Below, in pieces: positions 40,111 through 63,239 of a stretch of DNA of 64,000 bases. The position numbers and the translations under genes were made by a program. Positions within the stretch are counted from its first letter, which is position 1. Every line of letters starts with the position of its first letter. The stretch spans positions 13,014 to 77,013 of the forward strand of contig CAYHBA010000005.1 of assembly GCA_964354755.1 (NCBI GenBank), written 5' to 3'. The notes below the pieces were generated by a model. That model ran no database searches. It was given only the letters and a program-made list of their open reading frames with translations, and was not told the DNA's origin. This DNA is from an uncultured Thermoplasmata archaeon. Lineage in GTDB: Archaea; Thermoplasmatota; Thermoplasmata; SG8-5.

Positions 40111-40116
40111 ATTCAA

Positions 40117-43407: not shown

Positions 43408-43753
43408 TATGGATTTCAGGCTGTTCTTCACGCCGCTTTTCGCCTTCCTGGTGTTCCTTCTGATTGCCTACCTGATATATAGGTTCGGAGGCGCCATAGG
43501 CCCGGCAAGGAAGCGCCAGTCCAGACACAAGCTGAGCACATACGCCTGCGGCGAGGAATTCGAAGGCGGCAAAGTCCAGCAGTCGTTCACGCTGTTCCAT
43601 GTGGCCTTCATATTCACGATTTTCCACATCGCGGCCATGATAATCGCCACGATACCGGACGGGGACAATGCGCTCTACGGGCTGCTGTTCATAAGTGGAC
43701 TTCTGATAGCCGCTGTTGCGTTGGTCACATCGGGAGGTGAGGGCCATGTTTGA
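43400..43753 (+). CDS. NuoA/MbhI-like small membrane subunit
   Basis: 117 aa, 3 TM. YACGEEFEGG resembles the NuoA YECG motif. Confidence 0.6.
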   Translation: MLNMDFRLFFTPLFAFLVFLLIAYLIYRFGGAIGPARKRQSRHKLSTYACGEEFEGGKVQQSFTLFHVAFIFTIFHIAAMIIATIPDGDNALYGLLFISGLLIAAVALVTSGGEGHV

Positions 43754-44177: not shown

Positions 44178-44178
44178 C

Positions 44179-44634
44179 ATGGCTGACGATTATGTGTCCA
44201 ACCTGACAGCCAGGTTCCGGGGCATTGCCAAAGCCATAACCGAGGACAAGCAGGCGAAGGTCTACATGGAAGTCCCCAGGGAATCGCTGCTGAAGGTCGT
44301 GGAGATACTGAAGAACGAATTTGACGGATACCACATCTCGACGATAACGGTTCTCGACTCGGGTGAAAGGTTCGAACTCCTGTACCACATGCCGATCGGC
44401 CCAAGGCTCCTGAGCCTGAGGGTATTCCTGCCGAAGGGCGACCCGACGATCGATACTCTCACAAGGATACTGCCTGGCGCCATCCTTTACGAGAGGGAGC
44501 TGCACGACATCATGGGCATCCAGGTCAAGAATCACCCTGACATGCGCCGGCTTTTACTTCCGGATTCCTGGGGCGACAAGGGCTACCCGCTTAGGAAGGA
44601 CTGGGCGGATCCAAGGAAGAAGGAGGTGAAGTGA
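44179..44634 (+). CDS. NuoC-like (30 kDa) subunit (MbhK-like)
   Basis: ATG at 44179 with SD aaggagag. ERELHDIMGIQVKNHPD matches the NuoC signature. Confidence 0.8.
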   Translation: MADDYVSNLTARFRGIAKAITEDKQAKVYMEVPRESLLKVVEILKNEFDGYHISTITVLDSGERFELLYHMPIGPRLLSLRVFLPKGDPTIDTLTRILPGAILYERELHDIMGIQVKNHPDMRRLLLPDSWGDKGYPLRKDWADPRKKEVK

Positions 44635-46792: not shown

Positions 46793-47133
46793 TGAAGAGG
46801 CCAGGAGTGATGATAAAGGATGCGTTGGGGCGCTTGGGCAAGAAGCCTGTCACATCGAAATACCCGTACGAGAAATCGCCTGCTGAGCCCGGATACCGCG
46901 GCGTGATGCAGTTCCACGTGGACCTGTGCATCAGCTGCGGGATGTGCGCGAAGGACTGCCCGTCCTTCGCCTGCGTGATGGAGACGATAGACGGCAAGAA
47001 GCGGCCCGTCTTCTACCTGGACAGGTGCATGTTCTGCGCCCAGTGCGAGGAGTCCTGCCCCAAGGACGCGATAAAGATGACGCAGGAATACGAGCTTGCC
47101 CATCTGGCCGGAAACCAGCCCATCGTGAAGTAA
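46792..47133 (+). CDS. 2x[4Fe-4S] ferredoxin-like subunit (NuoI/MbhN-like)
   Basis: ATG at 46792 overlaps the NuoH-like stop. Two C-x2-C-x2-C-x3-CP motifs (CISCGMCAKDCP; CMFCAQCEESCP). Confidence 0.85.
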   Translation: MKRPGVMIKDALGRLGKKPVTSKYPYEKSPAEPGYRGVMQFHVDLCISCGMCAKDCPSFACVMETIDGKKRPVFYLDRCMFCAQCEESCPKDAIKMTQEYELAHLAGNQPIVK

Positions 47134-47135
47134 AC

Positions 47136-47606
47136 ATGAGCTTCGCCGAACGCCTGACAAAAGCCCTCGAGGGTGCATCGAAAGTGGTGGTGGTCGGCAT
47201 GGGCAATGAGCTGAACGGCGACGACGGGTTCGGCGTCCATGTCGCGAAAGCACTTGGGAATTACAGGAATGTAATCAGCATCCAAGCTCATACAGTCCCG
47301 GAAAATTTCATCTCCAAAATAGCCTCCGAGAAACCCAGCCATGTGATTTTCATTGATGCTGCAATCCTCGATACTCCCCCCGGAACAATGGAACTCCTTG
47401 AGACTCAGGATCTGGCCAGGGTCAAAATCCTTACCCATCGCATGCCGCTTCCGAAGCTGATTGAGAGGCTGAAGGAGACCCACAAGGCCAAGGTCTTGAT
47501 AGTCGCCATGCAACCGAAGGGGATGGAAGTCGGAACCCCGCTGTCCCCAGAGGCCAGTTCGGCCGCAAGGGAATTGATAAGTCTATTCAGGAAGAACTTC
47601 TCATAA
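47136..47606 (+). CDS. Hydrogenase maturation endopeptidase (HycI/HybD family)
   Basis: ATG at 47136, 3 nt after the ferredoxin-subunit stop. VVVGMGNELNGDDGFGVHVAKAL and FIDAA are hallmark motifs of [NiFe]-hydrogenase C-terminal processing proteases. Confidence 0.8.
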   Translation: MSFAERLTKALEGASKVVVVGMGNELNGDDGFGVHVAKALGNYRNVISIQAHTVPENFISKIASEKPSHVIFIDAAILDTPPGTMELLETQDLARVKILTHRMPLPKLIERLKETHKAKVLIVAMQPKGMEVGTPLSPEASSAARELISLFRKNFS

Positions 47607-47652: not shown

Positions 47653-48711
47653 GTGAAATATATGAATATCATGGATGACGAGTTCAACCTCAGACTTCTG
47701 AGGCTCCTGGTTTCCGGCGGGGGTGTGCGGGTGAACATCAATGCCCTGGCGAAGGAACTTAATATGCACCGGACCACAATAAAGAATCGTCTGGACTTTC
47801 TCTTTAAAGAAGGCCTTCTGGACAGACCCAGATATCCTTTCATTCACCTGTTCCAGGAATATCCCCTGCTCATACTGGCACTTGCCGACATCCCCCGGAC
47901 ACCACAGGCCAGGCACTTCTTCGAGGAGGATTCGCACATTTTTGCGGCGTACGCATGCAGGGAAGGGGCATACAACACCTTGCTCATCGAGTTCTTCAGG
48001 GACATCGAATCGTACCATTCCTGGCGCGAGAAAATCGTGCTCGAAGAGAAGCTGCCAAAGAGGGAGAGCCGCGCCACCGCGGACGTGTTCTTCTTCAGCA
48101 ACAGGCTCTGCTTCAAGTACAATCCTGCATGCTTCTTCACCGAGATAGGCGGGCTGATTGCCAGGGGCGGGACTGCCCGGCTGAAGGGCGCCTCGCTTGA
48201 TAAGACGGATTTCCTCATCATGAGCAATCTCTCGAACGGAAGGAGTCTCTACCCGAACGAGACCTTTCTCGCTGCCCAGCTGGATACGAACCGCAAGAAG
48301 GTTCAGAGGAGGATATCTGTCCTGCTCGAGAATAAGATAATTGACACGCCCAAATGTTATTTTCCGGACCTGCTCACTCCTCCAGGCTACAACATGGTGA
48401 TTACGCTTCTCGAAATTAAAGCCAAGAAAAGCCAGATAAAGCAGGATATCATGAACAACAACTACATTCCCAGGGCTTTGGAGAGCAGCACCGGAAGATA
48501 CAACACGCTCCTGTTCTCGTCATTCCCGACCATTGACGATTTCTTCGAATGGTCGGAAAATCTGGCGGATACGTACCCGGACAGCATCGGGGCCATGTCA
48601 AATTTCATTCTTTCCTCGAAGCCCAGGCATGCGATAAATCCGCAAAAAGTCTCTGTCGGGCTGATTGAAAAGAAACTGTGGGAATCCAAAACAGGAATTC
48701 GTACAGAATGA
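47653..48711 (+). CDS. Tandem (duplicated) Lrp/AsnC-family-like transcriptional regulator
   Basis: 352 aa. Two HTH_AsnC-like modules (DEFNLRLLRLLVSGGGVRVNINALAKELNMHRTTIKNRL and DKTDFLIMSNLSNGRSLYPNETFLAAQLDTNRKKVQRRI), each followed by an RAM-like domain. Confidence 0.6.
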   Translation: MKYMNIMDDEFNLRLLRLLVSGGGVRVNINALAKELNMHRTTIKNRLDFLFKEGLLDRPRYPFIHLFQEYPLLILALADIPRTPQARHFFEEDSHIFAAYACREGAYNTLLIEFFRDIESYHSWREKIVLEEKLPKRESRATADVFFFSNRLCFKYNPACFFTEIGGLIARGGTARLKGASLDKTDFLIMSNLSNGRSLYPNETFLAAQLDTNRKKVQRRISVLLENKIIDTPKCYFPDLLTPPGYNMVITLLEIKAKKSQIKQDIMNNNYIPRALESSTGRYNTLLFSSFPTIDDFFEWSENLADTYPDSIGAMSNFILSSKPRHAINPQKVSVGLIEKKLWESKTGIRTE

Positions 48712-48795
48712 TATGTTTTCTTATTATTTTCATCCCTAATTGTATGTTATTTACTGCCAGAAAATGCTATATCATTAAATACAGAAGTGTATTTT

Positions 48796-48814
48796 CCTGA
48801 TTTAGGAAATCAGG
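48796..48814. promoter_or_regulatory. Palindrome cctgattt-agg-aaatcagg immediately upstream of the gdh start and overlapping its SD
   Basis: 8-bp perfect arms, 9 nt upstream of ATG 48823. An AT-rich TATA-like stretch (tatatcattaaata) lies further upstream. Confidence 0.3.
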
Positions 48815-48822
48815 TGGCCGAT

Positions 48823-50106
48823 ATGGACAAAGGATTCAACGCATTCACAATGGCACAGGAACAATTCGACAAGATTGCGGAGCAACTTGAACTGGACCAA
48901 GCGACAAAGGAACTGCTGAGGACTCCAATGAGGGAGTATCATTTCTCGATACCTGTAAAGATGGACGACGGCACGACCAGGATATTCAGGGGCTTCAGGA
49001 TGCAGCACAACGATGCCAGGGGCCCGTGCAAAGGCGGAATACGCTTCCATCCTCAGGAAACAGGCGATACCGTAAAGGCACTTTCTATGTGGATGACCTG
49101 GAAGTGCGCAGTCGCTGACATACCCCTAGGCGGAGGCAAGGGCGGAGTGATTTGCGACCCCCACAACCTTTCCCTGAGGGAACAGGAGGCAATATGCCGG
49201 GGATGGGTAAGGCAGATATACCGGAATATCGGCCCTCAGGCCGACGTCCCGGCGCCGGATGTGATGACGAACAGCCAACATATGCTTTGGATGCTTGACG
49301 AGTACGAGAAATTGACAGGCGGCAGATACCCCGGGTTCATCACAGGAAAACCCGTGGGGATGGGCGGCTCTTTGGGCAGGACCGAGGCCACGGGATATGC
49401 GGCAGTGTTTGCGCTCAGAGAGGCATGCAAGGATCTCGAACTCGACATTGGCAAATCCACAGCATCCATCCAGGGTTTCGGGAATGTGGGCCAGTATGTC
49501 ATTGAAATGTACATCAAGTACGGCGGGACAGTGAAGGCCATATCTTGCTGGGACCAGAAGGAGAGCAAGGCCTACACATTCCTTAAGGCCGACGGCATAG
49601 GCCTTAAGGAACTCAGAGACATAACAGACAAGTTCGGATCCATAGACAAAAAGAAGGCCAAGGAGCTTGGCTACGACATTCAGGAAGGTCACGTATGGGC
49701 TGAGCAGGAAGTCGACATACTCATCCCGGCAGCATTGGAAAATTCAATCACCGAGGACGTGGCTGAGAAGATTCCCTCTAGCGTCAAGATATTATTGGAG
49801 GGTGCAAACGGTCCGACCACTCCCGAAGCTGACAAGATACTCAACATGAACAAGATCATGGTCATACCCGACTTCCTGGCGAACTCGGGCGGTGTTGTCT
49901 GCAGCTACTTCGAGCAGGTCCAGTCGAACATGAACTACTTCTGGCCCAAGGACGAGGTCCTCGGCAAGCTCGACGACAAGATGACACAGGCTTTCTACTC
50001 GGTGCTCGAGCTGTCCAAGAAGAAGAAATGTTCTCTCAGGGATGCGGCGTACATGATCGCCATCTCGCGGGTCGCGGAAGCCTGCCACCTGCGCGGCTGG
50101 GTCTGA
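48823..50106 (+). CDS. gdh: Glutamate dehydrogenase (archaeal/hexameric short type)
   Basis: ATG at 48823; the track start is a GTG. Glu/Leu/Phe/Val dehydrogenase signature [11 protein letters not shown], the GGGKGG catalytic-Lys region, and the NAD(P) fold GFGNVG. Confidence 0.85.
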   Translation: MDKGFNAFTMAQEQFDKIAEQLELDQATKELLRTPMREYHFSIPVKMDDGTTRIFRGFRMQHNDARGPCKGGIRFHPQETGDTVKALSMWMTWKCAVADIPLGGGKGGVICDPHNLSLREQEAICRGWVRQIYRNIGPQADVPAPDVMTNSQHMLWMLDEYEKLTGGRYPGFITGKPVGMGGSLGRTEATGYAAVFALREACKDLELDIGKSTASIQGFGNVGQYVIEMYIKYGGTVKAISCWDQKESKAYTFLKADGIGLKELRDITDKFGSIDKKKAKELGYDIQEGHVWAEQEVDILIPAALENSITEDVAEKIPSSVKILLEGANGPTTPEADKILNMNKIMVIPDFLANSGGVVCSYFEQVQSNMNYFWPKDEVLGKLDDKMTQAFYSVLELSKKKKCSLRDAAYMIAISRVAEACHLRGWV

Positions 50107-50113
50107 GATTCGC

Positions 50114-53059
50114 ATGCCACAGAAGCCTCAGGGCGAAAACGGCATAGCCAAACTGATCGGCGACATAGTCGGAAGGCGGTTGGACCAGTCCCCGCAGTCT
50201 CAGGTGCCCCCTTACAGAATAAACAATGTACTGGTGATTTCCACCGATTATGACTATTTCATTCTGGACGAGGAAGGCCGGCTGAGGAATCTCATAGTCC
50301 AGCAGTGCAGGAAGGAGGAGCGGACATCCGTTCCAGCCCTGACACATGCCACCGAGGAGAAGGCCGGCGAGGTCCTGAAGGCGGCGAAGTTTGACGCAGC
50401 CATCCTGTTCAATACTCCCACCAAGTCCGACATCATGGAACTGGCGAAGTCTGTTAAAGCGGTACAGGACATCCCGGTCGTGCTTGTCGGGAGAAGCGCC
50501 TCCGATATGACGAGAACCGCGAAAAGTTATAGCCAATCCCCAATAGACCACATGTTCACCTGGTCCGGCGACGGCAAGGTGTTCCTCGACATCATCCAGT
50601 TCCTGGAGGATTCCGAGCCCGAATCAGAGCCCCAAAGGCGGGCGATTCTTCTCGCTGACAGCCAGCCGCAGTATTATTCAAGGCTGGTTTACGAGGCCTA
50701 TAAAGTGGTTTCCGAGCACATGGCTGCGGTCGTGCCGGAGGACCTGATCCACAGCCAGAGAACCTCGAGGATGAGGAAGCGGCCCCGCGTGATCTTGGCC
50801 AAGACAAGCAAGGAACTGGGCGACATCTACCAGAGGAACAAACACTCAGTGTCCTGCATGATAATCGACATGAATATGGAGCAGCCAGAGACCGAATTGG
50901 CAGCATTCATATTAAAATTGCCGAAGTCGGGACCGCAGGTGCCAGTAATCCTGCTTTCATGCGCGAAGCATGACAGGTTCAGATGCCTGGATAAAAATTC
51001 TCCGGCATTCTTCACGGAATGCTCACGCTTCATTGCAGATGCCATAGGCCCGACACGCCTTTCGTTCAGGGATTCAGCCGGGACCGAGATTGCGTCCGTG
51101 TCTTCGCCCAAGGAGCTGGAGGCTGCCATGTGGAGCCTGCCCGCCGAGTCATTCGATCGGCACATGGACAATGGCGACGTGGCGAGATGGCTGGACGTGC
51201 TAATGGAGTCCGAGCTTTCCGAAAGGATCCGCAGACTCGTCAAATCCACGGGCGACATAGAGGAGCTTAGGAACAAGGCCATCAGTGCCATTTCGGAGCA
51301 CAGGAAAGCGGTCCAGAAGGGCGTGATAACGACTTACTCGAGGGGAGAAAACGAGCAGTCCAGGTTCAGCCGGATCGGCAAGGGCGCGATGGGCGGCAAA
51401 GCCCGCGGCCTGGCTTTCGCTGACAAGCTCATAAGCACCTACCTCGGGGAGGGCACGGTGCCCGGCATCAGCGTCAGGATTCCGAGGACCATTGTCCTCT
51501 GCTCGGACATATTCGACCAGTTCATCGAGGACAACGGCATCGACATAGAGGACCTGAGCCATCATTCGGACGAGAGAATAGCCCAGAAATTCATGGAAGG
51601 CGACCTTCCTGCGCCGGTGCTTGGGGACATCCGGGCATTCATTCGCGGGACCAAGGCGCCGATAGTTGTCAGGTCGTCCAGCCTCCTCGAGGACGCACTG
51701 CACCACCCGTTCGCCGGCGTTTACGCTTCACTTCTGCTTCCGAACGAATCATGGGAGACTGACATCCGGTTCCAGGAGCTCTGCGCTTCAGTGAAGTATG
51801 TCTTTGCGTCTGTATTCTTCCAGAAAGCAAGAACCTACATGGCTTCCCTAAAGGACATAAGGGAGGATGAGAAGATGGCCGTTGTCGTCCAAGAACTGGT
51901 CGGCTCAAAGCACGGCTCGATTTTCTATCCAACAACTTCAGGCGTGGCCAAGTCATACGATTATTACCCATCGGGAAGGTGCAAGGCCACGGACGGTGTG
52001 GTGAACATCGCCCTGGGTCTGGGGAAGGAAGTGGTGGACGGCGGAACCGCCTACAGGTTCTGCCCAGTACATCCGAAGACGCCGAAACACGGGACTCTCG
52101 AAAACCTTCTTGAGCATGCCCAGAAAGATTTCTTCGCTGTTGACCTGAATTCCTATGTGAACATAGTCCAGAGGAACGAGGACAGCACCATCAAGCATTT
52201 TCCCATATCTGTCGCTGAATCTCATGGTTCCTTGGAACAGGTTGCTTCGACCTACGAGCGTGAGGAGGGGCGTCTCTACCCCGGCACGGGAAGGGACGGA
52301 ATCAGGGTGCTTGACTTCGCGCCCCTGATAATTCTTGAGACCTATCCGGTAGCTAAACTGCTTCATACCCTACTGCGCGTGAACGAGCTGGCAGTGGGCT
52401 CGCCCGTAGAGATTGAATTTGCCATGGACATACCGTCGGAATCCAGCCAGCAACCGGATTTCTATGTGCTTCAGGTCAGAAGCATGCGCTCGACTGAGCA
52501 GGATTTCGACATCGAGCTGGGAACCCACGCCCCCGATGAAATTTTCTGCCATGCTATGCATGCGATGGGAAACGGCGTCATTTTGGGAATTCGGGACATA
52601 GTTTATGTCAAACGCGGGAATTACGACATTGCGGACAACCAGAAGATCATTCCGCAGATTCGCGTCATGAATGAAAAGATGTTGAAAGGCCGCACACCCT
52701 ACATTCTTGTAGGTCCTGGGAGATGGGGCTCTACGGACCCGTGGCTGGGCATACCGGTGAACTGGAGCGACATTGCCGGTGCAAGGCTGATAGTGGAGAC
52801 GCCAATAGAGGAAAGACCCGTGGATCCGTCGCAAGGCTCGCATTTCTTCCACAACATGGTGGCTGCCCGGACAGGGTATCTGACCATAATCCCAGGCACC
52901 GAGAGCTCGATAGACTGGGAGTGGCTCGAGGGCATCGGACCGGTCGAGGAGGAACAGCACATCATGCACGTTCGCCTGCCCGAACCGGTGGAAATCCGAA
53001 TCAACGGCGGAAGGGGCGAGGGCGTAATATTGAAAAAAGCAAAACCAGGAGCTGAGTGA
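50114..53059 (+). CDS. PEP-synthase-like phosphotransferase paralog 1: receiver-like domain, receiver-like domain, PPDK_N ATP-grasp domain, substrate domain, diverged phosphohistidine swivel domain (no PEP/pyruvate TIM barrel)
   Basis: 981 aa. GGKARGLAF and IVVRSSSLLEDALHHPFAGVYAS match PF01326 nucleotide-binding motifs. The C-terminal YILVGPGRWGSTDPW...ARLIVETP...GSHFFHN parallels the PEP-utilisers motif DILV..TDPDW...GIVTE.GG.TSHAAI. The two N-terminal domains have a REC-like fold. Confidence 0.8.
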   Translation: MPQKPQGENGIAKLIGDIVGRRLDQSPQSQVPPYRINNVLVISTDYDYFILDEEGRLRNLIVQQCRKEERTSVPALTHATEEKAGEVLKAAKFDAAILFNTPTKSDIMELAKSVKAVQDIPVVLVGRSASDMTRTAKSYSQSPIDHMFTWSGDGKVFLDIIQFLEDSEPESEPQRRAILLADSQPQYYSRLVYEAYKVVSEHMAAVVPEDLIHSQRTSRMRKRPRVILAKTSKELGDIYQRNKHSVSCMIIDMNMEQPETELAAFILKLPKSGPQVPVILLSCAKHDRFRCLDKNSPAFFTECSRFIADAIGPTRLSFRDSAGTEIASVSSPKELEAAMWSLPAESFDRHMDNGDVARWLDVLMESELSERIRRLVKSTGDIEELRNKAISAISEHRKAVQKGVITTYSRGENEQSRFSRIGKGAMGGKARGLAFADKLISTYLGEGTVPGISVRIPRTIVLCSDIFDQFIEDNGIDIEDLSHHSDERIAQKFMEGDLPAPVLGDIRAFIRGTKAPIVVRSSSLLEDALHHPFAGVYASLLLPNESWETDIRFQELCASVKYVFASVFFQKARTYMASLKDIREDEKMAVVVQELVGSKHGSIFYPTTSGVAKSYDYYPSGRCKATDGVVNIALGLGKEVVDGGTAYRFCPVHPKTPKHGTLENLLEHAQKDFFAVDLNSYVNIVQRNEDSTIKHFPISVAESHGSLEQVASTYEREEGRLYPGTGRDGIRVLDFAPLIILETYPVAKLLHTLLRVNELAVGSPVEIEFAMDIPSESSQQPDFYVLQVRSMRSTEQDFDIELGTHAPDEIFCHAMHAMGNGVILGIRDIVYVKRGNYDIADNQKIIPQIRVMNEKMLKGRTPYILVGPGRWGSTDPWLGIPVNWSDIAGARLIVETPIEERPVDPSQGSHFFHNMVAARTGYLTIIPGTESSIDWEWLEGIGPVEEEQHIMHVRLPEPVEIRINGGRGEGVILKKAKPGAE

Positions 53060-53060: not shown

Positions 53061-56000
53061 ATGAGCGAGAAGGAGCAGCAGACCGCGGACACGACCAAGA
53101 TACTGCAGGAAAGATTGAAGGAACTCAACTGCATTTACGGAATATCAACATTGATACAGGACGAGTCCATCGACCTTGAAGGAACCCTTGAGAAGTCCAT
53201 GGTTCTGATTCAAAATGCATGGCAGTATCCGGATATCACATGCGTCAGGATAATTTCCGGAGACAAGACTTTCGCGACCACCAATTTCAAGGAGACGGAG
53301 TGGAAGCAATCAGCCCCCATATCGTACCGCAGGAAGAGGATAGGCGCGGTCGAGATTTATTACCTCGTGTACAAGGAAACCGCAGACGAGGGCCCGTTCC
53401 TTCGGGAAGAAAGAAGGCTGCTTAATGCGGTCGCGGACCTCCTTTCAACTTATATCGAAAAGCAGGACATCAACATAAAGCTGAACGGATTCGAGACCAA
53501 GGAGAAACCAATCGACAAAAACGACTGGGAAATAATACTCGAGCTTCTGGTGAAGACCGATCCGAGGGGCGCGCTGCGCATCACAAGGCGAATGATATAC
53601 TACCTTTACAGGATTCAGAACGAGGAGATCACCGGAATCCTGGCCAAAGTGTGTCCGATAGATGGTAAAGCAGACGAGTGGTGTGGCATCAATATACCCA
53701 ATCCGAAAGAGGACGCGCAGGAGCTTCAGAGAGTTCAGAGAAAGGTCTTCGAGATAGCCAAAAGAGCCATCCCCAAGGAGGAAATATCTGATCTCTTCCA
53801 GACCTGGCTGAAATCCGACAAGGGCCGTCCGCTTCTTATAGCCTCCCAGAAGCAAGGCATATCGCTGGGCGAGATAACCAGCGAAATAAACAGGTATTGG
53901 GACATTCCCGAGGATGCTAGGGTGCTTATGCCCGAGGACGAGCGAGCGATAAGCGCGGGCCTCATCCGCCGGTTCTTCTCCGGGCGTCTGAACTACCTGA
54001 ATGTGGCAAAGGACTACATTCACCTGGACGATTTTGTTGACCTCACAAAGCGCATTGTCGGCCCCTCCCAGGGAGAAGGGAAACTGGGTGGCAAGAGCTC
54101 GGGCCTGTACCTCGCCCACAAGATTGTGGAGGTCGAGAAGAAGCGGGTGAAGGACCTTGAGAACATTAAAACTCCGAAGAGTTGGTATCTCACCTCCGAT
54201 TCGATGATGCACCTGATACGCTACAACGACCTTGACGACCTGATAAATATAAAATATCTCGACCCGAACGAGATACGCCAAGAACATGCGTTCCTGGAAC
54301 AGCTTTTCAAGAACTCCGTGTTCCCGCCGGACATAATCTCCGGGCTGAGGAGCGTCCTGCTGGACGCAGGGGACCATCCGATAATCGTGAGGTCTTCGAG
54401 CCTTCTCGAGGACAGCTTCGAGGCTGCATTCTCAGGCAAGTATAAGAGCCTGTTCCTTGTGAACACTGGTACGCTCGAGGAGAGGCTGAGCAACCTGATG
54501 AACGCCATAGCGGAAATTTACGCATCCGTATTCGCCCCCTCGCCCCTGGAATACAGGAGGGAGCGCGGCCTTCTCGAGTTCTCAGAGGAGATGAGTATTC
54601 TGATACAGGAGGTGGTCGGCACCAGGATAGGCCCATACTTCCTCCCGGTTTATGCGGGTGTATCGCTTTGCAACAACGAGTTCAGCTGGTCCCCGCGGAT
54701 ACGCAGGGAGGACGGCATGGTCAGGCTCGTTTCCGGGCTGGGCACCAGGGCAGTGGACCGCGTTGGGGACGATTACCCCGTGCTCATGGCTCCGTTCAGG
54801 CCCGAGATACGCGTCAACAGGCTGATCGACGAGGCCATACAGTACTCCCAACGCTATATCGACGTGATAAATGTCGAGAAGCGAACCTTGGAGACAGTCG
54901 ACAGCACTGAACTCCTTACGAAATACTGGGACGAGTACCCAATGGTTCACCAGATGATATCCTTACACAAGGAGGGAATGCTCCAGCCAGCCAGGAGCGT
55001 CCTGATAGATTCCGAAGGCGCAGACATGGTCATCACCTTCGACAAGATGATAGAAAAGACAGAGTTTGTCCCGCAGATCAAAGCCCTCCTTACAATTCTG
55101 AAGAACAAGCTCGAGACACCAGTTGACATTGAGTTCGCCTATGACGGCAAGAACCTTTACCTGCTCCAATGCAGGCCCCAGCACCAGGCCTTGGAGGTCG
55201 ACAGGGTCCCTGTCCCCAAGAACATTGCCCCCAACAGGAAGCTGTTCTCAGCGAACAAGTATATCACGACCAGCCACCTGGAAAACATCGAGTACCTGGT
55301 TTACGTCGACCCGAACGAGTACAGCGACCTCAAGGACCGCAACCAGATGCTGGACGTCGCCAAGGCCGTGGGTATATTGAACAAGCAGCTTCCGAAGAGG
55401 CGCTTCATCCTGATGGGCCCGGGCAGGTGGGGCAGCAGGGGCGACATCAAGCTGGGCGTCCCGGTCCAGTATTCGGACATCAACAACACCTCGCTTCTGA
55501 TAGAGATAGCCAGGCAAAGAGGCGGGTATCAGCCGGACCTGTCGTTCGGGACTCATTTCTTCCAGGACCTGGTCGAGGCGGACATCCATTACATGCCGCT
55601 GTATCCCGACGAGACTGGCAACCTTCTCAACGAGGAATTCATATCCATGGCACCGAACAGGCTTGCTGAGCTTGTTCCGAAATACAAGGCTCTTGAGCAT
55701 GTGATAAAGGTGGTGCGGATATCCGATGTGGAGGACGGCGGCACCATGACTGTGGTCATGGACGGCGAAGCGAACCTGGCGCTTGCTTACACTGTTCCTG
55801 CGGACCATTGGATATGGCGTGTCAGGAAGGCCGAGGAGATTGGGATGGCGCTCGACACCGAGCTTTACGGTGTCGAGGCAATGTATCTGATTGGCAGCTC
55901 CAAGGACGGCACTGCCAGGGCAGCCAGCGATCTTGACCTGGTGATTCATGCGAAGGGGTCCCAGGACCAGACCGAATCCCTCTTGCGTTGGCTCAAAGGA

Positions 56001-56183
56001 TGGGATGAGAAACTCGCGGCTGAGAACCGCGAGCGCACAGGCGCGGATACCACAGAGATACTGGATGTACACATTGTCACCGACGAGGATATTGCCGCGA
56101 AATCGTCATGGGCCGCCCACATAGGCAATCCCTACAACCCTGCGAGGGAGATAAGGTTAAGGAAGCCAGCTACCGATGAGTGA
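53061..56183 (+). CDS. PEP-synthase-like phosphotransferase paralog 2: GAF-like sensor, PPDK_N ATP-grasp domain, substrate domain, swivel domain, C-terminal minimal nucleotidyltransferase (Pol-beta superfamily)
   Basis: 1040 aa. The N-terminus resembles an archaeal GAF sensor (LKELNCIYGISTL...QYPDITCVRII...). PPDK_N motifs GGKSSGLYLA and IIVRSSSLLEDSFEAAFSGKY. C-terminal swivel block FILMGPGRWGSRGD...GTHFFQD. The final ~120 aa carry an MNT motif YLIGSSKDGTARAASDLDLVIHA. Confidence 0.8.
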   Translation: MSEKEQQTADTTKILQERLKELNCIYGISTLIQDESIDLEGTLEKSMVLIQNAWQYPDITCVRIISGDKTFATTNFKETEWKQSAPISYRRKRIGAVEIYYLVYKETADEGPFLREERRLLNAVADLLSTYIEKQDINIKLNGFETKEKPIDKNDWEIILELLVKTDPRGALRITRRMIYYLYRIQNEEITGILAKVCPIDGKADEWCGINIPNPKEDAQELQRVQRKVFEIAKRAIPKEEISDLFQTWLKSDKGRPLLIASQKQGISLGEITSEINRYWDIPEDARVLMPEDERAISAGLIRRFFSGRLNYLNVAKDYIHLDDFVDLTKRIVGPSQGEGKLGGKSSGLYLAHKIVEVEKKRVKDLENIKTPKSWYLTSDSMMHLIRYNDLDDLINIKYLDPNEIRQEHAFLEQLFKNSVFPPDIISGLRSVLLDAGDHPIIVRSSSLLEDSFEAAFSGKYKSLFLVNTGTLEERLSNLMNAIAEIYASVFAPSPLEYRRERGLLEFSEEMSILIQEVVGTRIGPYFLPVYAGVSLCNNEFSWSPRIRREDGMVRLVSGLGTRAVDRVGDDYPVLMAPFRPEIRVNRLIDEAIQYSQRYIDVINVEKRTLETVDSTELLTKYWDEYPMVHQMISLHKEGMLQPARSVLIDSEGADMVITFDKMIEKTEFVPQIKALLTILKNKLETPVDIEFAYDGKNLYLLQCRPQHQALEVDRVPVPKNIAPNRKLFSANKYITTSHLENIEYLVYVDPNEYSDLKDRNQMLDVAKAVGILNKQLPKRRFILMGPGRWGSRGDIKLGVPVQYSDINNTSLLIEIARQRGGYQPDLSFGTHFFQDLVEADIHYMPLYPDETGNLLNEEFISMAPNRLAELVPKYKALEHVIKVVRISDVEDGGTMTVVMDGEANLALAYTVPADHWIWRVRKAEEIGMALDTELYGVEAMYLIGSSKDGTARAASDLDLVIHAKGSQDQTESLLRWLKGWDEKLAAENRERTGADTTEILDVHIVTDEDIAAKSSWAAHIGNPYNPAREIRLRKPATDE

Positions 56184-57114
56184 CGACTTCCCTCGTTGCA
56201 TTGTCCAGGTTGTCGGTGCTGAACCTCACAACGGCCAGCCCCGGACCGTCATGCGAACCACCGAAGGAATGTGACTTCCCGAGTCTCACCCTCCAGTCCC
56301 CGGTCAGCCTAACAGACTCATGTATATGGCCATGCAGTGTAAGGAGGGGAGAAGTTTTTTCTATGAATCTCCTGATGGCAATGCTGCCGACATGGATATC
56401 GGCGGGGGCATGGTCTACGAACTTGCCGTCATTGGCCGTCCTGTCCAGGGGAGTGTCGGAAGGCGGGGCATGGAACAGGTAGACTGTGCTACCAGGGTCG
56501 GATAGCTTGGCCAGTTCAACCAGGTCCTTTTCAATCGTGGAGTATCTCGCATCCTCGGGCGTGACCTCGACGGTTCTTATGCCCTCCTCTGGAGAGACGC
56601 AGCCCACGCCCGTGAACCTTGAAACATCGTATTTCTCCCAGTCCTTTAAAAGGAAAGGCGAGGGCGGAACGAAGGAATAGCCGACAACGCTCAGGCCTCC
56701 GAAGGTGACGCACTTTTGCTGGACATATTCAATAAGCCCGTCATTTGCCATTCTCTCGAGCATGGGCTCGTGAACCCTTGGGTCGTCATTGCCCGGTATA
56801 ATGAAGAAACGTGTTCTCCCGCAAGTTTCCCTGACTTTCCTGATGCGCTGGGACATCCGGCTCAGGAATTCCCCGATGTCGCCTGACCTGCCATATCCGC
56901 CAGGCAGGAGGTCTCCGCCAATGAGGACCCAGTCGGGGCACTCAGTCTCCGCAATGGAGAACAGGATGTCATACCTATCAGGCTTCCCGTGAAGGTCTGT
57001 GACGAAAATGCAGTTCATGCCCGTCATGGATTTCCTCTGTAAGTTCAACTGCCCGTCATACAAATATTTTTGCTTTTTCCTGTATTTTGGCATCAGGTGT
57101 GGAAACAAGGGCAT
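56170..57114 (-). CDS. Calcineurin-like metallophosphoesterase
   Basis: 314 aa. Motifs DLHG, GDLL, GNDD and GHIH. The real start is probably the internal ATG (MNCIFVTDLHG, ~57018). The tail overlaps the paralog-2 stop by 14 nt (convergent). Confidence 0.75.
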   Translation of the reverse strand: MPLFPHLMPKYRKKQKYLYDGQLNLQRKSMTGMNCIFVTDLHGKPDRYDILFSIAETECPDWVLIGGDLLPGGYGRSGDIGEFLSRMSQRIRKVRETCGRTRFFIIPGNDDPRVHEPMLERMANDGLIEYVQQKCVTFGGLSVVGYSFVPPSPFLLKDWEKYDVSRFTGVGCVSPEEGIRTVEVTPEDARYSTIEKDLVELAKLSDPGSTVYLFHAPPSDTPLDRTANDGKFVDHAPADIHVGSIAIRRFIEKTSPLLTLHGHIHESVRLTGDWRVRLGKSHSFGGSHDGPGLAVVRFSTDNLDNATREVVTHR

Positions 57115-57212: not shown

Positions 57213-58556
<1,344 letters not shown>

Positions 58557-58619: not shown

Positions 58620-61586
58620 TTATTCTTGTTTTCTTGTTATACAGCCAAGACCGGTCCTGCCGTCGACCTTCACCTCTAGCTCGAACGGGAGCTCTACATG
58701 GGTAACATGACCCACCTTTTTCCTCTTTCCGGCTTTCTCCAGCCAATCCCAGTCTATCGATGCATCGTCCGAGCCATGTGGAATGGTGAAATACATTATC
58801 CCGAGTGAGGTGATGTTGTGGAAAAAATGCGTGCCGTGAGATGGATCGATCCTGTACCCCTCCAGGCCCACCTCCACCATTGCCCTGGCCCAGGAAATCT
58901 GTTTCCAATCCACAGGTATCCCCAGGAACCTGTCCCTTGTACCCCATCGTCCCGGGCCGATGAGCAGATAGGGCCTGTCCATGCCGTCGTTGACCTCCCC
59001 GATATCCCTGGCCAAGTCAGCGGTCTTTGTATTGTCGAATTCCGAAGGGCTGATATAAACCACATCCCTGATTCCCCTGAGCACGCCATTGCCGAGCGCT
59101 TTGGATGAATAGGCGAAGGCTCCCTGTCTGTCATCCTCCGACACGGTCACGCTTGCCTTTTCCCTCATGGTCAGAAGGGGGCGAATCTGGAGCACATTGA
59201 ACTCGGGTTTTCCCGCGCAGTCCAGCCTCAGCGCGAATTCCATCTCAATCGGCGAGCCCATTCCGACAGTGCCGAAATCCAGGAGACTGTCAATGACACC
59301 GGGCAGAGGCAGCAATCCGTATTTCAGGACACCGGAGAATGTCACCACTCTGGGGCCGTCAGCGCCAACTCCTTCCCTAATCCTGCCGTCAGCCGGGTCG
59401 TATGTGCTTGCCACATAATTCAGCGTGCCATCCTCCTCCGCGTCTGACACCTGCAGTCTGAGAAGGGTGGAATCGTCGCCTTTTATCAGGTCGTAATCGG
59501 ATGTGGCCATGTCAAGGCAGTAGAAGTAACTCTGCGTGTTCTTGATAATGTCATTCGGCGTGGAGAATCCCGGGGTTATGCCAGGATTCTTCGGTGAGAA
59601 TGCCAGGACCCTCCCGCCCTCCACGACAGTCTTGCCGAGCCCCAGCGCCACGCTCGCTATCCCGTCCTCCCGTTTCAGGGGCGCGACAGGATAGAAATTG
59701 TATGACTGGGCGACACCGGAGAAAATCGGGTAGAATCTGTCCCCGTATCTGTTGCCGACCATCTTCTGGAGAACGATGGCCATCTTCTCCTCCTCGGTTG
59801 TATGCACTGTGTTCTGGATGTAAGCCTTGGCCGATGCCAGAAACGCCGAGGCATAGACAAGTTTGATTGCGTCCAGGAGACGCACGAGCCTTGCATCGTT
59901 CCCAGTTTCGTTGTTGGGCAGCATGAATGTCGAGTAAATACCGGCGAAAGGCTGATTCTGGCTGTCCTCCAGCAGGCTTGAGGAGCGGACGGCCAGCGGC
60001 TCCCTGACATGCCTGATATATTCTCCCAGTGCCTTGAGGATGTCATCGGGCATCTTGCCCTTGAGGAAAATTTTCTTGATGCTGATGTCGTCCGGTTTCT
60101 TGGAAATTGCCTCGCTCAGCTTGTTTTCCTCGATGAACCTGTCGAATATATCGGTTCCCATTACCAGTGTGTCAGGGATGCGGACACGGCATTCTGGTAT
60201 TGTCTCGTCGATGTTCTTCTGGGCGAACAGGGCGAACAGGAATGCCAGACCCCTGCCCTTGCCCCCGAGCGAGCCGCCGCCCAGCCTGGTGAATGTTTCT
60301 TCCACTTCGAAATTCTGCTGCCAGAAATCTGTAATCATGCCCCGCCTTTTGGCCCGGTCCAGTTCCCTGAATGTGGCGGCCAGGTACCTTCTGATGTCCT
60401 CGTCGTCCTTGAAGTCAGAAACTTTCTTGGGTCTGAGCTTCAGGGCCATTCCTATCTCGCCCCTTGCCATAAGCCAGTTCGAGAAATGGTTGGCTCCAGC
60501 ATGGTATTTCAATGACTCTGCCGGCACCTTGTCTAGGAGAGTGAGGAATTCAGCCATGTCCCCGGCGCTGCCAATGATTGCGCCTGCAGGGGTTCTGAAA
60601 ACGAAATCGCCGAACCCCAGCGATTCCTTGAAGAACCTCCTCAGGTCGTGCATGAGCTTGTCCGAATGCTTTCCTATGAACTTGACGCCGAGGCTCTCAG
60701 CCTTGGCTCTGTGGGCATCGTCCGAGGACTGCACCAGGATGGGGATGCCCTCGTCCAGGCTCTTCACCAGCTCGAAACCTGCCAGTTCCAGTTCCTCGCC
60801 GTTCCTCGTATATGTCACGTCGGTGATGACGCCAAGGATGTTCTCCCGATACATGTTGTACTTCTCGACCGCCTCCTCATAGGTTTCGGCGAGCACTATC
60901 TTCGGTCTGGCTCTTTTCCTGTAGGTTTTCTCCTGCTCGTTCAGGCTGTCGGAGATGAGGTCATGCGTCTGGAGCATGATCTCCCTGTAAACTATAGGGA
61001 GGAACATCGAGTAATATTTCGGCGAGTCCTCTACCAGCAACAGCACCCGCACGAAGGCGTCCCTCGTGTCCGCCTTCACATTCATGAGGTCTTCGACGAA
61101 TTTGGTTATGGCAAAGAACAGGGCCGAGTCGCCGTTCCAATAGAATATCTTGTCAATCTCATCGCGTTTGTCGGGTATGCTGTAGATCGGAATCTCTGCC
61201 GTATCCGTGAGAAGCAGAATTACTGGAATACTAGGCTGAATGGCCTTTGCCTCCCTCCCGAACTCAAACGGGTTCCTGTCCGTGACCCTGGGCATAGTGA
61301 TGATCATGTCGTAATGTTTCTGCACGAGCGCCTCCAATGCGAGCCTGCAGTTGTCCACCCTCGTAACGGTGGGCGGGGAGGAAGAGATGGACATGGCCTT
61401 GTACTCGCCCGAAATACGGTCTGAGAGCAGCCCCTCCTCCTCAAGGATGAAAGCGTCATACAGGCTGGAGACCAGCAGTATGTCATAGACCCTGCGCTTC
61501 ATGAGGTCTGAAAGCCCGCGCCTGAAATCGCCGTTCTGGCTGTTGTCGTTGAGGTTGGTTTTCTTTGCCTTGCCGCGAGGTTCCAT
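58620..61586 (-). CDS. PEP-synthase-like phosphotransferase paralog 3: receiver-like domain, canonical receiver domain, PPDK_N ATP-grasp domain, substrate domain, swivel domain
   Basis: 988 aa. REC2 has canonical phospho-acceptor geometry (VLLLVEDSP..., ILGVITDVTY, PILVQSS). PPDK_N motifs GGKGRGLAF and LAVRSSSLLEDSQNQPFAGIYSTF. Swivel-like YLLIGPGRWGTRDRFLGIPV...GTHFFHN. Confidence 0.8.
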   Translation of the reverse strand: MEPRGKAKKTNLNDNSQNGDFRRGLSDLMKRRVYDILLVSSLYDAFILEEEGLLSDRISGEYKAMSISSSPPTVTRVDNCRLALEALVQKHYDMIITMPRVTDRNPFEFGREAKAIQPSIPVILLLTDTAEIPIYSIPDKRDEIDKIFYWNGDSALFFAITKFVEDLMNVKADTRDAFVRVLLLVEDSPKYYSMFLPIVYREIMLQTHDLISDSLNEQEKTYRKRARPKIVLAETYEEAVEKYNMYRENILGVITDVTYTRNGEELELAGFELVKSLDEGIPILVQSSDDAHRAKAESLGVKFIGKHSDKLMHDLRRFFKESLGFGDFVFRTPAGAIIGSAGDMAEFLTLLDKVPAESLKYHAGANHFSNWLMARGEIGMALKLRPKKVSDFKDDEDIRRYLAATFRELDRAKRRGMITDFWQQNFEVEETFTRLGGGSLGGKGRGLAFLFALFAQKNIDETIPECRVRIPDTLVMGTDIFDRFIEENKLSEAISKKPDDISIKKIFLKGKMPDDILKALGEYIRHVREPLAVRSSSLLEDSQNQPFAGIYSTFMLPNNETGNDARLVRLLDAIKLVYASAFLASAKAYIQNTVHTTEEEKMAIVLQKMVGNRYGDRFYPIFSGVAQSYNFYPVAPLKREDGIASVALGLGKTVVEGGRVLAFSPKNPGITPGFSTPNDIIKNTQSYFYCLDMATSDYDLIKGDDSTLLRLQVSDAEEDGTLNYVASTYDPADGRIREGVGADGPRVVTFSGVLKYGLLPLPGVIDSLLDFGTVGMGSPIEMEFALRLDCAGKPEFNVLQIRPLLTMREKASVTVSEDDRQGAFAYSSKALGNGVLRGIRDVVYISPSEFDNTKTADLARDIGEVNDGMDRPYLLIGPGRWGTRDRFLGIPVDWKQISWARAMVEVGLEGYRIDPSHGTHFFHNITSLGIMYFTIPHGSDDASIDWDWLEKAGKRKKVGHVTHVELPFELEVKVDGRTGLGCITRKQE

Positions 61587-61733: not shown

Positions 61734-63239
61734 CTATTTCTTCGGCATCTCGCAGGTCATGTCCCCGGGCAGGGCCTCAGGCTTCGGAATGATTTTGGGG
61801 ATGCCCAATAATTTCTCGTGGATGTCCATGGCAGATTTCTTTCCTGCGCCCATGGCCTCGATTACCGTGGCCATGCCTGTGACTATGTCCCCGCCTGCCC
61901 AAACCATGTCTTTCTTCGTCTTCCCCCACTCATCCGCCGCGATATAGCCCCATTTGTTGAGCTCGAGCCCCGGAGTCGACCTTGTAAGCAGCGGATTGGC
62001 CCCTGCGCCGATGGCGTTGATGACTAGGTCGCAGTCGATGACATACTCGGAATCCGGGATGGGCACGGGCCTGCGCCTGCCGGACTCATCCGGTTCCCCC
62101 AGTTCCATCCTCGAGCACTTGAGCCCCTTCACCATGTTGTTCTCGTTGCCCAAAACCTCGACTGGATTGGTGAGGAGGCACATCTTCACCCCCTCCTCCT
62201 CCGCATGGTGGATCTCCTCTATTCTGGCCGGCATCTCCTCCCTGCTCCTGCGGTACACGACAGAGACGTCGCCGCCCAGTCTGAGCGCAGTCCTGGCCGA
62301 GTCCATGGCCACGTTTCCCCCGCCTATGACGCAGACCTTCTTCCCCTTGACGATGGGCGTGTCATACTCAGGGAACCTGTAGGCCTTCATCAGGTTGCTC
62401 CTTGTGAGATACTCGTTGGCCGAGTACATGCCCCCGAAATTCTCCCCAGGGATTCCCAGGAACTTAGGCAGCCCGGCGCCGACGCCTATGAAAACTGCGT
62501 GGAAGCCCCTCTCGTTCAGCAGCTCGTCGATCGATACAGTCCTGCCGACTATCTCGTTGAGCTTCAGCTTCACGCCCAACTTTACCAGATAGTCAACTTC
62601 CTTCTCCACGATGGCCTTCGGGAGCCTGAATTCCGGAATGCCGTACATCAGCACGCCGCCCGGCTTGTGGAAGGCCTCGAAGATAGTTACATCATAACCG
62701 AGAAGGACCATGTCCCCGGCCACTGTAAGGCCGGAAGGTCCCGAGCCCACAATGGCAATCTTTTTTCCGTTGGGCGCAGCCTTTTTGGGGAGCTGGATGA
62801 GATCGTTCTCCCTCTCGTAATCCGCTGCGAATCTCTCCAGTCTGCCTATTGCCACTGCTCTGCCCATCTTGTTAAGCACGCAGTGCTGCTCGCACTGCGT
62901 CTCTTGGGGACAGACCCTTCCGCAAATGGCCGGGAGTGCGTTTGTTTCCTTGATTTTCCTGGCCGCTTCTGCATATTTCCTCTCGGTTATCAATTTGATG
63001 AAGCCCGGGATGTTTATGTTGACAGGGCAGCCGCAGACACATGAGGGAACCTTGCACTGGAGGCATCGCCCGGCCTCCTCCCTGGCCATCTCATCTGTAT
63101 AACCCAGTGGAACCTCCAGGAAGTTGGTTGCGCGGACCTTCGGGTCCTGCTCGGGCATCGGGACTCTGTCCTTCCTGCGCGGTTTCTTCTCGGTCATTGC
63201 TTCACCCCGTGTTCCTCGACGTACTTCTGGAGAGAGCAT
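61734..63239 (-). CDS. Glutamate synthase small-chain-like NAD(P)H oxidoreductase (GltD / SudA / NfnB family)
   Basis: 501 aa. Two Fe-S Cys clusters (CLQCKVPSCVCGCPVNINIP; CGRVCPQETQCEQHCV), then FAD/NAD Rossmann motifs (IAIVGSGPSG, VCVIGGGNVAMD). The start may be the internal ATG at ~63197 (MTEKKPRRK), abutting the upstream partner's stop. Confidence 0.85.
   Translation of the reverse strand: MLSPEVRRGTRGEAMTEKKPRRKDRVPMPEQDPKVRATNFLEVPLGYTDEMAREEAGRCLQCKVPSCVCGCPVNINIPGFIKLITERKYAEAARKIKETNALPAICGRVCPQETQCEQHCVLNKMGRAVAIGRLERFAADYERENDLIQLPKKAAPNGKKIAIVGSGPSGLTVAGDMVLLGYDVTIFEAFHKPGGVLMYGIPEFRLPKAIVEKEVDYLVKLGVKLKLNEIVGRTVSIDELLNERGFHAVFIGVGAGLPKFLGIPGENFGGMYSANEYLTRSNLMKAYRFPEYDTPIVKGKKVCVIGGGNVAMDSARTALRLGGDVSVVYRRSREEMPARIEEIHHAEEEGVKMCLLTNPVEVLGNENNMVKGLKCSRMELGEPDESGRRRPVPIPDSEYVIDCDLVINAIGAGANPLLTRSTPGLELNKWGYIAADEWGKTKKDMVWAGGDIVTGMATVIEAMGAGKKSAMDIHEKLLGIPKIIPKPEALPGDMTCEMPKK

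Follow-up and report, generated by a model that had tools for sequence, protein, structure and literature searches.

A sensor, ATP-grasp, and nucleotidyltransferase fusion protein predicted from a conserved glutamate dehydrogenase gene cluster of Thermoplasmatota and bacteria

Introduction

GlnE, the adenylyltransferase of glutamine synthetase (GS), and GlnD, the uridylyltransferase/UMP-removing enzyme of PII, are nucleotidyltransferases (NTases) of the Pol-beta fold that mark a central protein of nitrogen assimilation. A sensor (the ACT domain in GlnD) and a means of removing the mark (the HD domain in GlnD and the second NTase domain in GlnE) belong to these systems. Here, we analyze a gene at positions 53061 to 56183 of a 64,000-nucleotide stretch of DNA (the window) from an uncultured Thermoplasmata archaeon (contig CAYHBA010000005.1). 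The gene encodes a fusion of a putative sensor, an ATP-grasp domain, and an NTase (here called the fusion protein) and lies in a cluster with a gene for glutamate dehydrogenase (GDH). In parallel to GlnE and GlnD, a sensor is combined with an NTase, a phosphoesterase gene stands alongside, and the genes adjoin that of a nitrogen metabolism enzyme. However, the NTase is of the minimal MNT type, the neighbor is GDH instead of GS or PII, the eraser would be encoded by a gene of its own, and an ATP-grasp module has been added; Pfam detected neither an HD domain nor an ACT domain in the fusion protein.

A dedicated writer and eraser serving one metabolic enzyme are also known for nitrogenase (DraT/DraG) and isocitrate dehydrogenase (AceK). 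The DraT and DraG genes adjoin the genes of their target, just as the proposed writer and eraser genes adjoin that of GDH. However, DraT/DraG and AceK belong to unrelated enzyme families and use unrelated chemistry (ADP-ribosylation and serine phosphorylation). In its presumed working, the fusion protein appears closest to GlnE/GlnD and DraT/DraG, with homology in the NTase fold only.

The type VII HEPN/MNT toxin-antitoxin system MntA/HepT has a minimal NTase of the same family (PF01909), with an exact GSX10DXD motif and a matching fold. MntA AMPylates protein tyrosine, and GSX10DXD is required for its protein AMPylation (PMC7641770). The motif of the fusion protein is identical in form to that of MntA (comparison with PMC7641770). 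In contrast to MntA/HepT, no HEPN partner accompanies the fusion protein (no HEPN, DUF86, or NTase_sub_bind family was found among the genes of the neighborhoods inspected), a regular-expression search found no RX4HXY acceptor motif in any protein of the module, and the NTase occupies the C-terminal tenth of a 1040-amino-acid (aa) enzyme encoded in a metabolic operon. The score with the NCBIfam MntA_antitoxin equivalog was 20.5 bits, against a cutoff of 60. By these comparisons, the fusion protein does not represent a HepT/MntA system. An earlier note on this DNA, made from the sequence alone, had seen no NTase-HEPN partner nearby, and this holds for the neighborhoods that we inspected; its likening of the protein to toxin or defense modules is contradicted by the same results, by the metabolic synteny described below, and by matches to PADLOC defense models that are only generic.

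Phosphoenolpyruvate (PEP) synthase, pyruvate phosphate dikinase (PPDK), and rifampin phosphotransferase resemble the central part of the fusion protein, in which a PPDK_N domain with the ATP-binding residues is followed by a Thr-His pair reminiscent of the T-S-H phosphohistidine motif. However, no PF00391 domain could be detected in the fusion protein, and it lacks the TIM barrel that binds PEP/pyruvate: Pfam gave no match to PEP-utilizers_C, and the C terminus is occupied by the NTase. Scores with the NCBIfam PEP synthase models were ~50 bits, against cutoffs of 600 to 880 (for TIGR01418, 50.9 against 739.75). On this evidence, the fusion protein has a genuine PPDK_N domain yet is neither a PEP synthase nor a PPDK.

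PtsP (EI-Ntr) is similar in that it joins an N-terminal GAF sensor to a PEP-utilizing phosphotransfer enzyme with a link to nitrogen status, and its GAF domain responds to glutamine and 2-oxoglutarate. It differs in that it is an EI without ATP-grasp and NTase domains, which uses PEP and passes the phosphate to NPr; those partners are not present here.

The fusion gene and its conservation

The open reading frame (ORF) begins with ATG and continues for 1040 codons in a single uninterrupted frame, with no frameshift. Sequence searches, together with an AlphaFold2 (AF2) model of the full-length protein (44-sequence alignment; mean predicted local distance difference test score [pLDDT], 80.4), divide the product into five parts, as follows:

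53061..56183, + strand: fusion gene, 1040 aa, with sensor, helical, ATP-grasp, Thr-His, and NTase domains
53088..53486, + strand (residues 10-142): GAF-like sensor cassette, from a fold match; motifs ELNC.Y, AWQYPDIT, and EGPFL.EE
53523..54050, + strand (residues 155-330): all-helical domain, from AF2 helices; confined to the family of the fusion protein
54081..55196, + strand (residues 341-712): PPDK_N-type ATP-grasp domain; PF01326, E = 6e-49
55239..55796, + strand (residues 727-912): Thr-His domain, common to all three paralogs in the window; no family assigned
55806..56153, + strand (residues 916-1031): minimal (MNT-type) Pol-beta NTase, from PF01909, motif, and fold

The earlier note had described an in-frame fusion of a kinase-like ATP-grasp enzyme and an NTase, and the fusion of a PPDK_N ATP-grasp domain to an MNT-type NTase is indeed genuine. 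Genome assemblies yielded another 74 full-length ORFs with the GAF-like/PPDK_N/NTase architecture, from 16 archaeal and 58 bacterial loci, and more than 120 database clusters of 1030 to 1105 aa also carry it at full length. Because these ORFs and clusters keep the fusion at full length, it is not an artefact of assembly or frameshift. Residue conservation was scored in 75 sequences, comprising the window protein and the 16 archaeal and 58 bacterial ORFs; an earlier alignment held 44 full-length homologs. The catalytic residues are kept across the homologs, the aspartate triad of the NTase is intact, and the ATP-grasp and NTase signatures are under purifying selection in the 16 archaeal and 58 bacterial homologs. 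An artefactual or decayed, inactive fusion has a vanishingly small probability and was ruled out by the 74 independent full-length ORFs, which come from different assemblies and retain the catalytic residues.

One 1635-aa ORF in a metagenome-assembled genome of Ignavibacteria (locus L043, 6113-11020) seemed to join the paralog encoded upstream to the fusion protein. It results from an ambiguous base (X) where the two reading frames meet and was rejected as a Rosetta-stone fusion.

A conserved gene cluster with glutamate dehydrogenase

The genes next to the fusion gene in the window that recur in other genomes are the following:

48787..50106, + strand: glutamate dehydrogenase GDH1, 439 aa; orthologs carry ELFV_dehydrog_N and ELFV_dehydrog; first in the conserved cluster
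50114..53059, + strand: paralog 1, 981 aa; degenerate REC-like N terminus, PPDK_N (E = 4.9e-36), and Thr/Ser-His domain
56170..57114, - strand: calcineurin-like metallophosphoesterase; PF00149, E = 8.5e-9; convergent with the fusion gene

Paralog 1, which gave a weak Response_reg match, has the GPGRWGS and G(S/T)HFF motifs in common with the fusion protein, and its stop codon lies 1 nucleotide (nt) before the ATG of the fusion gene. At the other end, the metallophosphoesterase ORF and the 3' end of the fusion gene overlap by 14 nt (56170-56183), which confirms the convergent overlap described in the earlier note. All eight metallophosphoesterase orthologs tested matched PF00149. The real start of this protein is likely Met30 or Met33 (~57027 or 57018) and not the listed ORF start, since the orthologs align only from residue ~33.

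Species-representative genomes were scanned with two peptide patterns specific to the fusion protein, which yielded at least 593 confirmed relatives. The best 80 of these at least 593 loci formed the synteny sample, in which the window proteins were compared with all ORFs of each locus by BLASTP; the denominators given below (65 and 74) are the loci with enough flanking sequence. The 80 loci belong to Thermoplasmatota and to more than 12 bacterial phyla. Bacterial carriers include Acidobacteriota, Planctomycetota, Ignavibacteria, Bacteroidota, Cloacimonadota, Syntrophomonadaceae, Chloroflexota, Calditrichota, Zixibacteria, Krumholzibacteriota, and Lentisphaerota, the last with the cultured Oligosphaera ethanolica DSM 24202 (L067).

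A GDH gene lies no more than 3.5 kb upstream of the fusion gene homolog in 64 of 65 loci, and a PPDK_N paralog (paralog 1- or paralog 3-like) is found immediately upstream in 52 of 65. In bacteria, this upstream paralog is mostly ~585 aa long and consists of the ATP-grasp and Thr-His domains only, without the REC region. The commonest gaps between it and the fusion gene are -4 and -8 nt, i.e., overlaps. Immediately downstream, a metallophosphoesterase gene is present in 53 of 74 loci, in 48 of those 53 in convergent orientation. This adjacency fits the proposal of the earlier note that the metallophosphoesterase is a functional partner of the fusion protein. The pointer of that note to nitrogen signaling of the GlnE/GlnD type is supported by the position of GDH; it does not extend to the NTase itself, which is not of the GlnE family (PF03710 was matched by only 2 of 23 members, at an E value of 0.12).

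In the 48 convergent loci, the 3' ends of the two genes abut or overlap, elsewhere commonly with spacings of ~-4 to +6 nt. Most of these loci leave little or no room for a terminator, which may give rise to transcriptional interference or antisense effects.

The smallest conserved unit consists of GDH and the fusion gene and was seen, for example, in Oligosphaera (L067) and in the Syntrophomonadaceae loci L026, L029, L053, and L063. Between archaea and bacteria, GDH1 orthologs are mostly 61% to 74% identical (a few lower) and the fusion proteins are 41% to 45% identical; these values suggest that the GDH/fusion module has spread horizontally, probably moving as a unit. The closest of the relatives listed is Methanomassiliicoccales archaeon UBA147 (L018), which has the same seven-gene order and proteins 70% to 91% identical to those of the window; the window thus probably belongs to a related lineage of Thermoplasmatota. 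Several loci also have other genes of nitrogen or amino acid metabolism near the fusion gene, namely, those for glutamine synthetase (nearby only in some loci), glutamate synthase, an Nfn/GltD-like protein, and the glycine cleavage T protein, and a membrane-bound hydrogenase is found among the neighbors as well. As judged from gene order, the conserved module of GDH, PPDK_N paralog, fusion protein, and metallophosphoesterase, which occurs both in archaea and across more than 12 phyla of bacteria, is a larger finding than the fusion itself.

The C-terminal nucleotidyltransferase domain

The last ~120 residues had been read in the earlier note as a Pol-beta/MNT NTase with a GS-X9-13-DXD signature, and this assignment is well founded for the last ~115 residues. 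NTP_transf_2 (PF01909) was matched at residues 934 to 985 with 23.3 bits (gathering cutoff, 21) and by all 23 C-terminal homolog segments tested (best E, 1.7e-10), with E values of 3e-8 and 6e-8 for bacterial orthologs. The motif consists of G945-S946, 10 intervening residues, and D957-L-D959, and a third acidic residue, D1002, is located in a predicted strand (residues 1001 to 1006). Among the 75 sequences, G945, D957, and D1002 are invariant, S946 is present in 74, and D959 is present in 73 (Asn in two); in the 44-sequence full-length alignment, all five residues are invariant.

A profile search of the PDB with the NTase identified first the Sulfolobus minimal NTase 2rff (E = 0.0015) and then kanamycin NTase and MntA. 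The domain is modeled with pLDDT values of 75 to 94, and Foldseek aligned the model to the MNT antitoxins 7ae2 and 7ae9, AadA (5lpa), and 2rff with probabilities of 0.9 to 0.97 and E values of only ~1e-2; further fold matches were the MNT structures 6m6v and 8xeo. Sequence and fold agree in placing the fusion protein in the PF01909 minimal NTase family, and the kept catalytic residues predict that the NTase is apparently active. The N-terminal NTase domain of class I adenylate cyclases gave weak, nonsignificant matches in 9 of 23 members (best E, 0.05). The polypeptide chain stops ~35 residues past D1002, and for this reason the fusion protein has no HEPN-like substrate-binding domain.

The ATP-grasp core and the Thr-His domain

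The structures nearest to the ATP-grasp domain by Foldseek were rifampin phosphotransferase (5hv3; E = 5e-14), HpeI (9goj; 2e-9), and PPDK (1kbl; 2.5e-5). K345, R444, E450, D451, E691, Q703, and R705 are invariant among the 75 sequences, and D689 is present in 74; the kept residues lie in the motifs GGK345, R444-SSS-LLED451, and Q703-C-R705-P. We take the conserved ATP-grasp residues to correspond to the PPDK ATP-binding residues K22, R92, D321, E323, Q335, and R337.

An alignment of the three paralogs in the window revealed two motifs in the Thr-His domain, GPGRWGS (residues 786 to 792) and SFGTHFFQD (residues 828 to 836). T831-H832 is invariant in all 75 sequences and is located at the start of a predicted helix. 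The pLDDT of the motif region (residues 789 to 840) was below 50 when the C-terminal third was modeled alone and was 50 to 76 in the full-length model.

This domain had been called a swivel domain in the earlier note, a label for which we found no support. Neither Pfam nor the PDB sequence search returned any match for the domain. None of 23 members matched the Pfam family PEP-utilizers (PF00391), and a PDB profile search with the Thr-His domain returned no swivel domain. A profile of 158 Thr-His sequences, compared by hhalign with an alignment of 14 genuine swivel domains (two from Escherichia coli, of PpsA and PtsI, and 12 from plasmid-borne genes for PPS, PtsP, or PEP utilizers), gave a probability of 0.3%, and a hidden Markov model search (hmmsearch) for a swivel relationship gave nothing above shuffled sequences. 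By eye, several motifs are colinear with those of swivel domains: G.G..G..V is found in both, and ILxGPGRWG, GG...G-T-H-FF, and VxxDGxxG stand opposite ILVxxTxPxW, GGxTSHAA, and VxVDGxxG, respectively. Moreover, the Foldseek alignments to PPDK span 640 to 734 columns, i.e., well past the ATP-grasp domain. Because of this colinearity and the length of these alignments, a distant swivel homology of residues 727 to 912 is possible, if unproven. The idea that the Thr-His domain is a degenerate copy of the NTase that arose by internal duplication was rejected (hhalign probability, 0.1% to 0.3%).

The N-terminal sensor cassette and the helical domain

Residues 10 to 142 form an alpha/beta domain with pLDDT values of ~76 to 91 in the full-length model. 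Foldseek matched it to the GAF domains of NlhI (4g3k; TM score, 0.58), NifA (8jrc), and PDE5A (3lfv) with a probability of 1.00 and to CodY (8c7t) with a probability of 0.96; the E values across the GAF matches were 0.03 to 0.12. The Pfam GAF-type families remained below their gathering scores (GAF, 15.8 bits against 22.4; GAF_3, 14.2 against 27), and such subthreshold GAF or GAF_3 matches were seen in 5 of 20 family members (E, 0.015 to 0.06). Of the GAF sensor named in the earlier note, the presence of an N-terminal sensor domain is thus upheld, whereas its identity as GAF is seen only at the level of the predicted fold.

A database search with residues 1 to 335 found the ~125-residue cassette at the N termini of HisKA/HATPase_c and HisKA_3 kinases, PAS proteins, and GerE/LuxR regulators, with 50% identity to one HisKA/HATPase_c kinase and 42% identity to one GerE/LuxR-type regulator. 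Its occurrence on histidine kinases, PAS proteins, and LuxR regulators marks the cassette as a mobile signal input module. Cys24 (53130-53132), in the first helix of the cassette within ELNC.Y, is present in every one of the 74 sequences that align there (one gap) and also in the histidine kinase and LuxR-type proteins that bear the same cassette. It may be a redox or ligand attachment residue.

Residues 155 to 330 are predicted to be helical, with pLDDT values of ~64 to 92 except for a low-confidence loop near residues 200 to 210. Pfam gave no match for this region, and in the N-terminal database search it was covered only by fragments of the family of the fusion protein. The region is strongly conserved, with many invariant columns in the 44-homolog alignment, and is a candidate substrate- or partner-binding domain.

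Other genes of the window

Three further genes flank the conserved cluster:

47653..48711, + strand: helix-turn-helix (HTH; AsnC/TrmB-like) protein, 352 aa; weak Pfam matches to HTH_11, HTH_AsnC, and HTH_24
57213..58556, + strand: second glutamate dehydrogenase, GDH2, 447 aa; orthologs at 62% to 91% identity in several loci
58620..61586, - strand: paralog 3, 988 aa; REC-like region, PPDK_N (E = 3e-40), and Thr-His domain; convergent with GDH2

The HTH protein has two weak winged-helix/AsnC-type HTH regions. Its orthologs (47% to 85% identity) lie upstream of GDH in 12 of 17 distinct Thermoplasmatota loci and not in the bacterial loci, and it is probably a lineage-specific transcription regulator of the archaeal cluster.

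The convergent pair of GDH2 and paralog 3 recurs in other Thermoplasmatota genomes. For homologs of paralog 3, a GDH gene (ELFV_dehydrog) adjoins convergently in loci L099 and L101 and lies 4 kb away in L100; glutamate synthase genes also adjoin paralog 3 in L101. Members of the paralog 3 family carry REC (PF00072), DUF5752, and PPDK_N domains. In many relatives of paralog 3, DUF5752 (PF19027; residues ~336 to 406 of P0218 and P0237) is located between the REC and ATP-grasp domains. Since the paralog 3 family also adjoins GDH, the association with GDH is a property of the shared ATP-grasp/Thr-His core, of which the fusion protein represents the version with a GAF-like input and an NTase added.

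Around the cluster (36362-47606 and 61734-63239), genes of amino acid catabolism and energy metabolism are found. They encode a dihydrolipoamide dehydrogenase-like flavoprotein, a glycine cleavage T protein, and an NfnB/GltD-like protein with Fer4_20 and Pyr_redox_2 domains, and they include a cluster for a membrane-bound [NiFe] hydrogenase of the Mbh/Ech type, with a HycI protease. These surroundings are consistent with a peptide-fermenting Thermoplasmatota archaeon.

Proposed function and alternatives

The fusion protein is probably a regulator of GDH. In the reading that we favor, to which we assign a probability of about 40%, a sensor controls the enzyme, GDH is its target for covalent modification, and the phosphoesterase acts as the eraser. 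This reading is favored by the conserved residues of both catalytic centers, the synteny of GDH, the paralog, and the phosphoesterase, the position of the paralog 3 family beside GDH, the attached signal input domains, the motif in common with the AMPylating MntA, and the genes of nitrogen or amino acid metabolism near several loci. The GAF-like cassette would bind a small-molecule signal, for which 2-oxoglutarate, glutamine, or glutamate is a guess. The ATP-grasp domain would use ATP, with Thr831-His832 probably carrying the phosphate or taking part in catalysis, by analogy with dikinases, and with a phospho-His832 intermediate possible in the ATP-grasp/Thr-His core. The MNT-type NTase would transfer a nucleoside monophosphate, most likely AMP, to a hydroxyl group of the target, as do MntA, GlnE, and GlnD. 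The adjacent metallophosphoesterase would then hydrolyze the phosphoester or phosphodiester mark. What the analysis shows directly is the domain layout, the conserved signatures of the two catalytic centers, the mobile nature of the sensor cassette, and the gene order with GDH, the paralog, and the phosphoesterase; we infer that GDH is the substrate, that the phosphoesterase erases the mark, how each step proceeds chemically, and which ligand is bound. The suggestion of the earlier note that one target is phosphorylated and then adenylylated is speculation.

Several points weigh against covalent modification of GDH. As a pattern of gene order, the synteny indicates functional coupling with GDH and is not proof of GDH as the substrate. 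To our knowledge, every characterized PPDK_N enzyme phosphorylates small molecules or glucan (pyruvate, rifampin, phenols, or starch), and none phosphorylates a protein. The phosphohistidine mechanism is drawn at the motif level only, because the Thr-His domain could not be identified as a swivel. To bind their substrates, minimal NTases normally depend on a partner or on an additional, HEPN-like domain, and neither was found for the NTase of the fusion protein. No phosphoesterase gene adjoins the fusion gene in 21 of 74 loci, and in 13 of 65 loci the short paralog went undetected (several of these are ORF-calling overlaps). Finally, literature searches turned up no reversible AMPylation of a prokaryotic GDH.

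Some of these points agree with small-molecule chemistry, the main rival explanation, which we consider somewhat unlikely. Here, the core would phosphorylate and the NTase would nucleotidylylate a low-molecular-weight compound, either a metabolite close to glutamate and 2-oxoglutarate or an effector or second messenger that derives from a nucleotide and acts allosterically on GDH, and the phosphoesterase would degrade that compound in the manner of class III cyclic-nucleotide phosphodiesterases. The characterized PPDK_N enzymes, which as a matter of general knowledge all act on small molecules or polysaccharide, fit this explanation, as do the nearest structures, rifampin phosphotransferase and the phenol-type dikinase subunit HpeI. 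The weak, nonsignificant likeness of the phosphoesterase is to YfcE-type phosphodiesterases and not to PPP protein phosphatases. Second-messenger systems typically pair sensor-gated synthesis with hydrolysis, and the adenylate cyclase matches of the NTase point in the same direction. However, those matches are nonsignificant, the NTase is minimal (~115 residues) and is not accompanied by a further domain of the cyclase type or for substrate binding, neither GDH nor its neighbors show an evident effector-binding domain, and besides GDH the cluster contains no conserved candidate enzyme of a pathway.

Internal regulation is improbable. It supposes that the target of the NTase is paralog 1 or the fusion protein itself, with a modified site that may lie at or close to the Thr-His pair, and that this modification switches the kinase-like activity on or off, with phosphotransfer as the sole output toward GDH. 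PPDK and PEP synthase are regulated through modification of the Thr beside the catalytic His, and in the fusion protein the NTase is tethered straight after the Thr-His domain. Paralog 1 and the fusion protein may also form a complex, as suggested by the 4- or 8-nt overlaps that translationally couple their genes in many loci. On the other hand, GDH and the fusion gene persist without paralog 1 and the phosphoesterase in loci such as L067, L026, L029, L053, and L063, paralogs 1 and 3 function without an NTase, and there is no direct sign of self-modification.

A toxin-antitoxin or antiphage defense module of the HEPN/MNT type, to which the NTase family, the GSX10DXD motif shared with MntA, and weak PADLOC matches to the PDC-S09 and PDC-S10 models would point, is very improbable, as those matches are limited to the generic NTase and phosphoesterase cores and the gene order with a housekeeping GDH is kept across more than 12 phyla, unlike in defense islands.

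The covalent control of GDH can also be framed more broadly, as a widespread posttranslational control in which a GAF-gated, dikinase-like and AMPylating writer acts together with a phosphoesterase eraser and REC paralogs feed in two-component signals; we regard this wider form as tentative and on balance doubtful. We rate the module as a putative sensor-coupled covalent modification system assembled from known folds, for whose combination and context we found no earlier description.

Annotation and significance

Proteins of the family of the fusion protein are labeled automatically in databases as "nucleotidyltransferase domain-containing," as "PEP/pyruvate-binding domain-containing," or, often, as "PEP synthase" or "PPDK." The database names of the three paralog families include "pyruvate, water dikinase," "pyruvate, phosphate dikinase," "phosphoenolpyruvate synthase," "histidine kinase," and "CheY-like chemotaxis protein." The pyruvate-binding domain is absent from all three families, for which reason the dikinase, PEP synthase, and PPDK names are unsupported and are, by domain content, misannotations. 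For the same reason, metabolic reconstructions that derive gluconeogenesis from these genes are probably wrong.

Full-text literature searches returned no description of the architecture of the fusion protein or of a GDH-linked PPDK_N/NTase module and no dedicated covalent regulator of a prokaryotic GDH. In peptide-fermenting anaerobes, GDH is the main gate between amino acid carbon and ammonium. Many carriers of the module are such organisms, among them Thermoplasmatota, Cloacimonadota, Aminicenantes, Ignavibacteria, and Syntrophomonadaceae, and the cultured carrier Oligosphaera ethanolica DSM 24202 makes the GDH hypothesis directly testable. If covalent modification of GDH is true, the module would be the GDH counterpart of GlnE/GS and DraT/DraG and would include the first PPDK_N family enzyme acting on a protein. 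It would then represent a new branch of nitrogen regulation, with a new function for both the PPDK_N and the MNT families.

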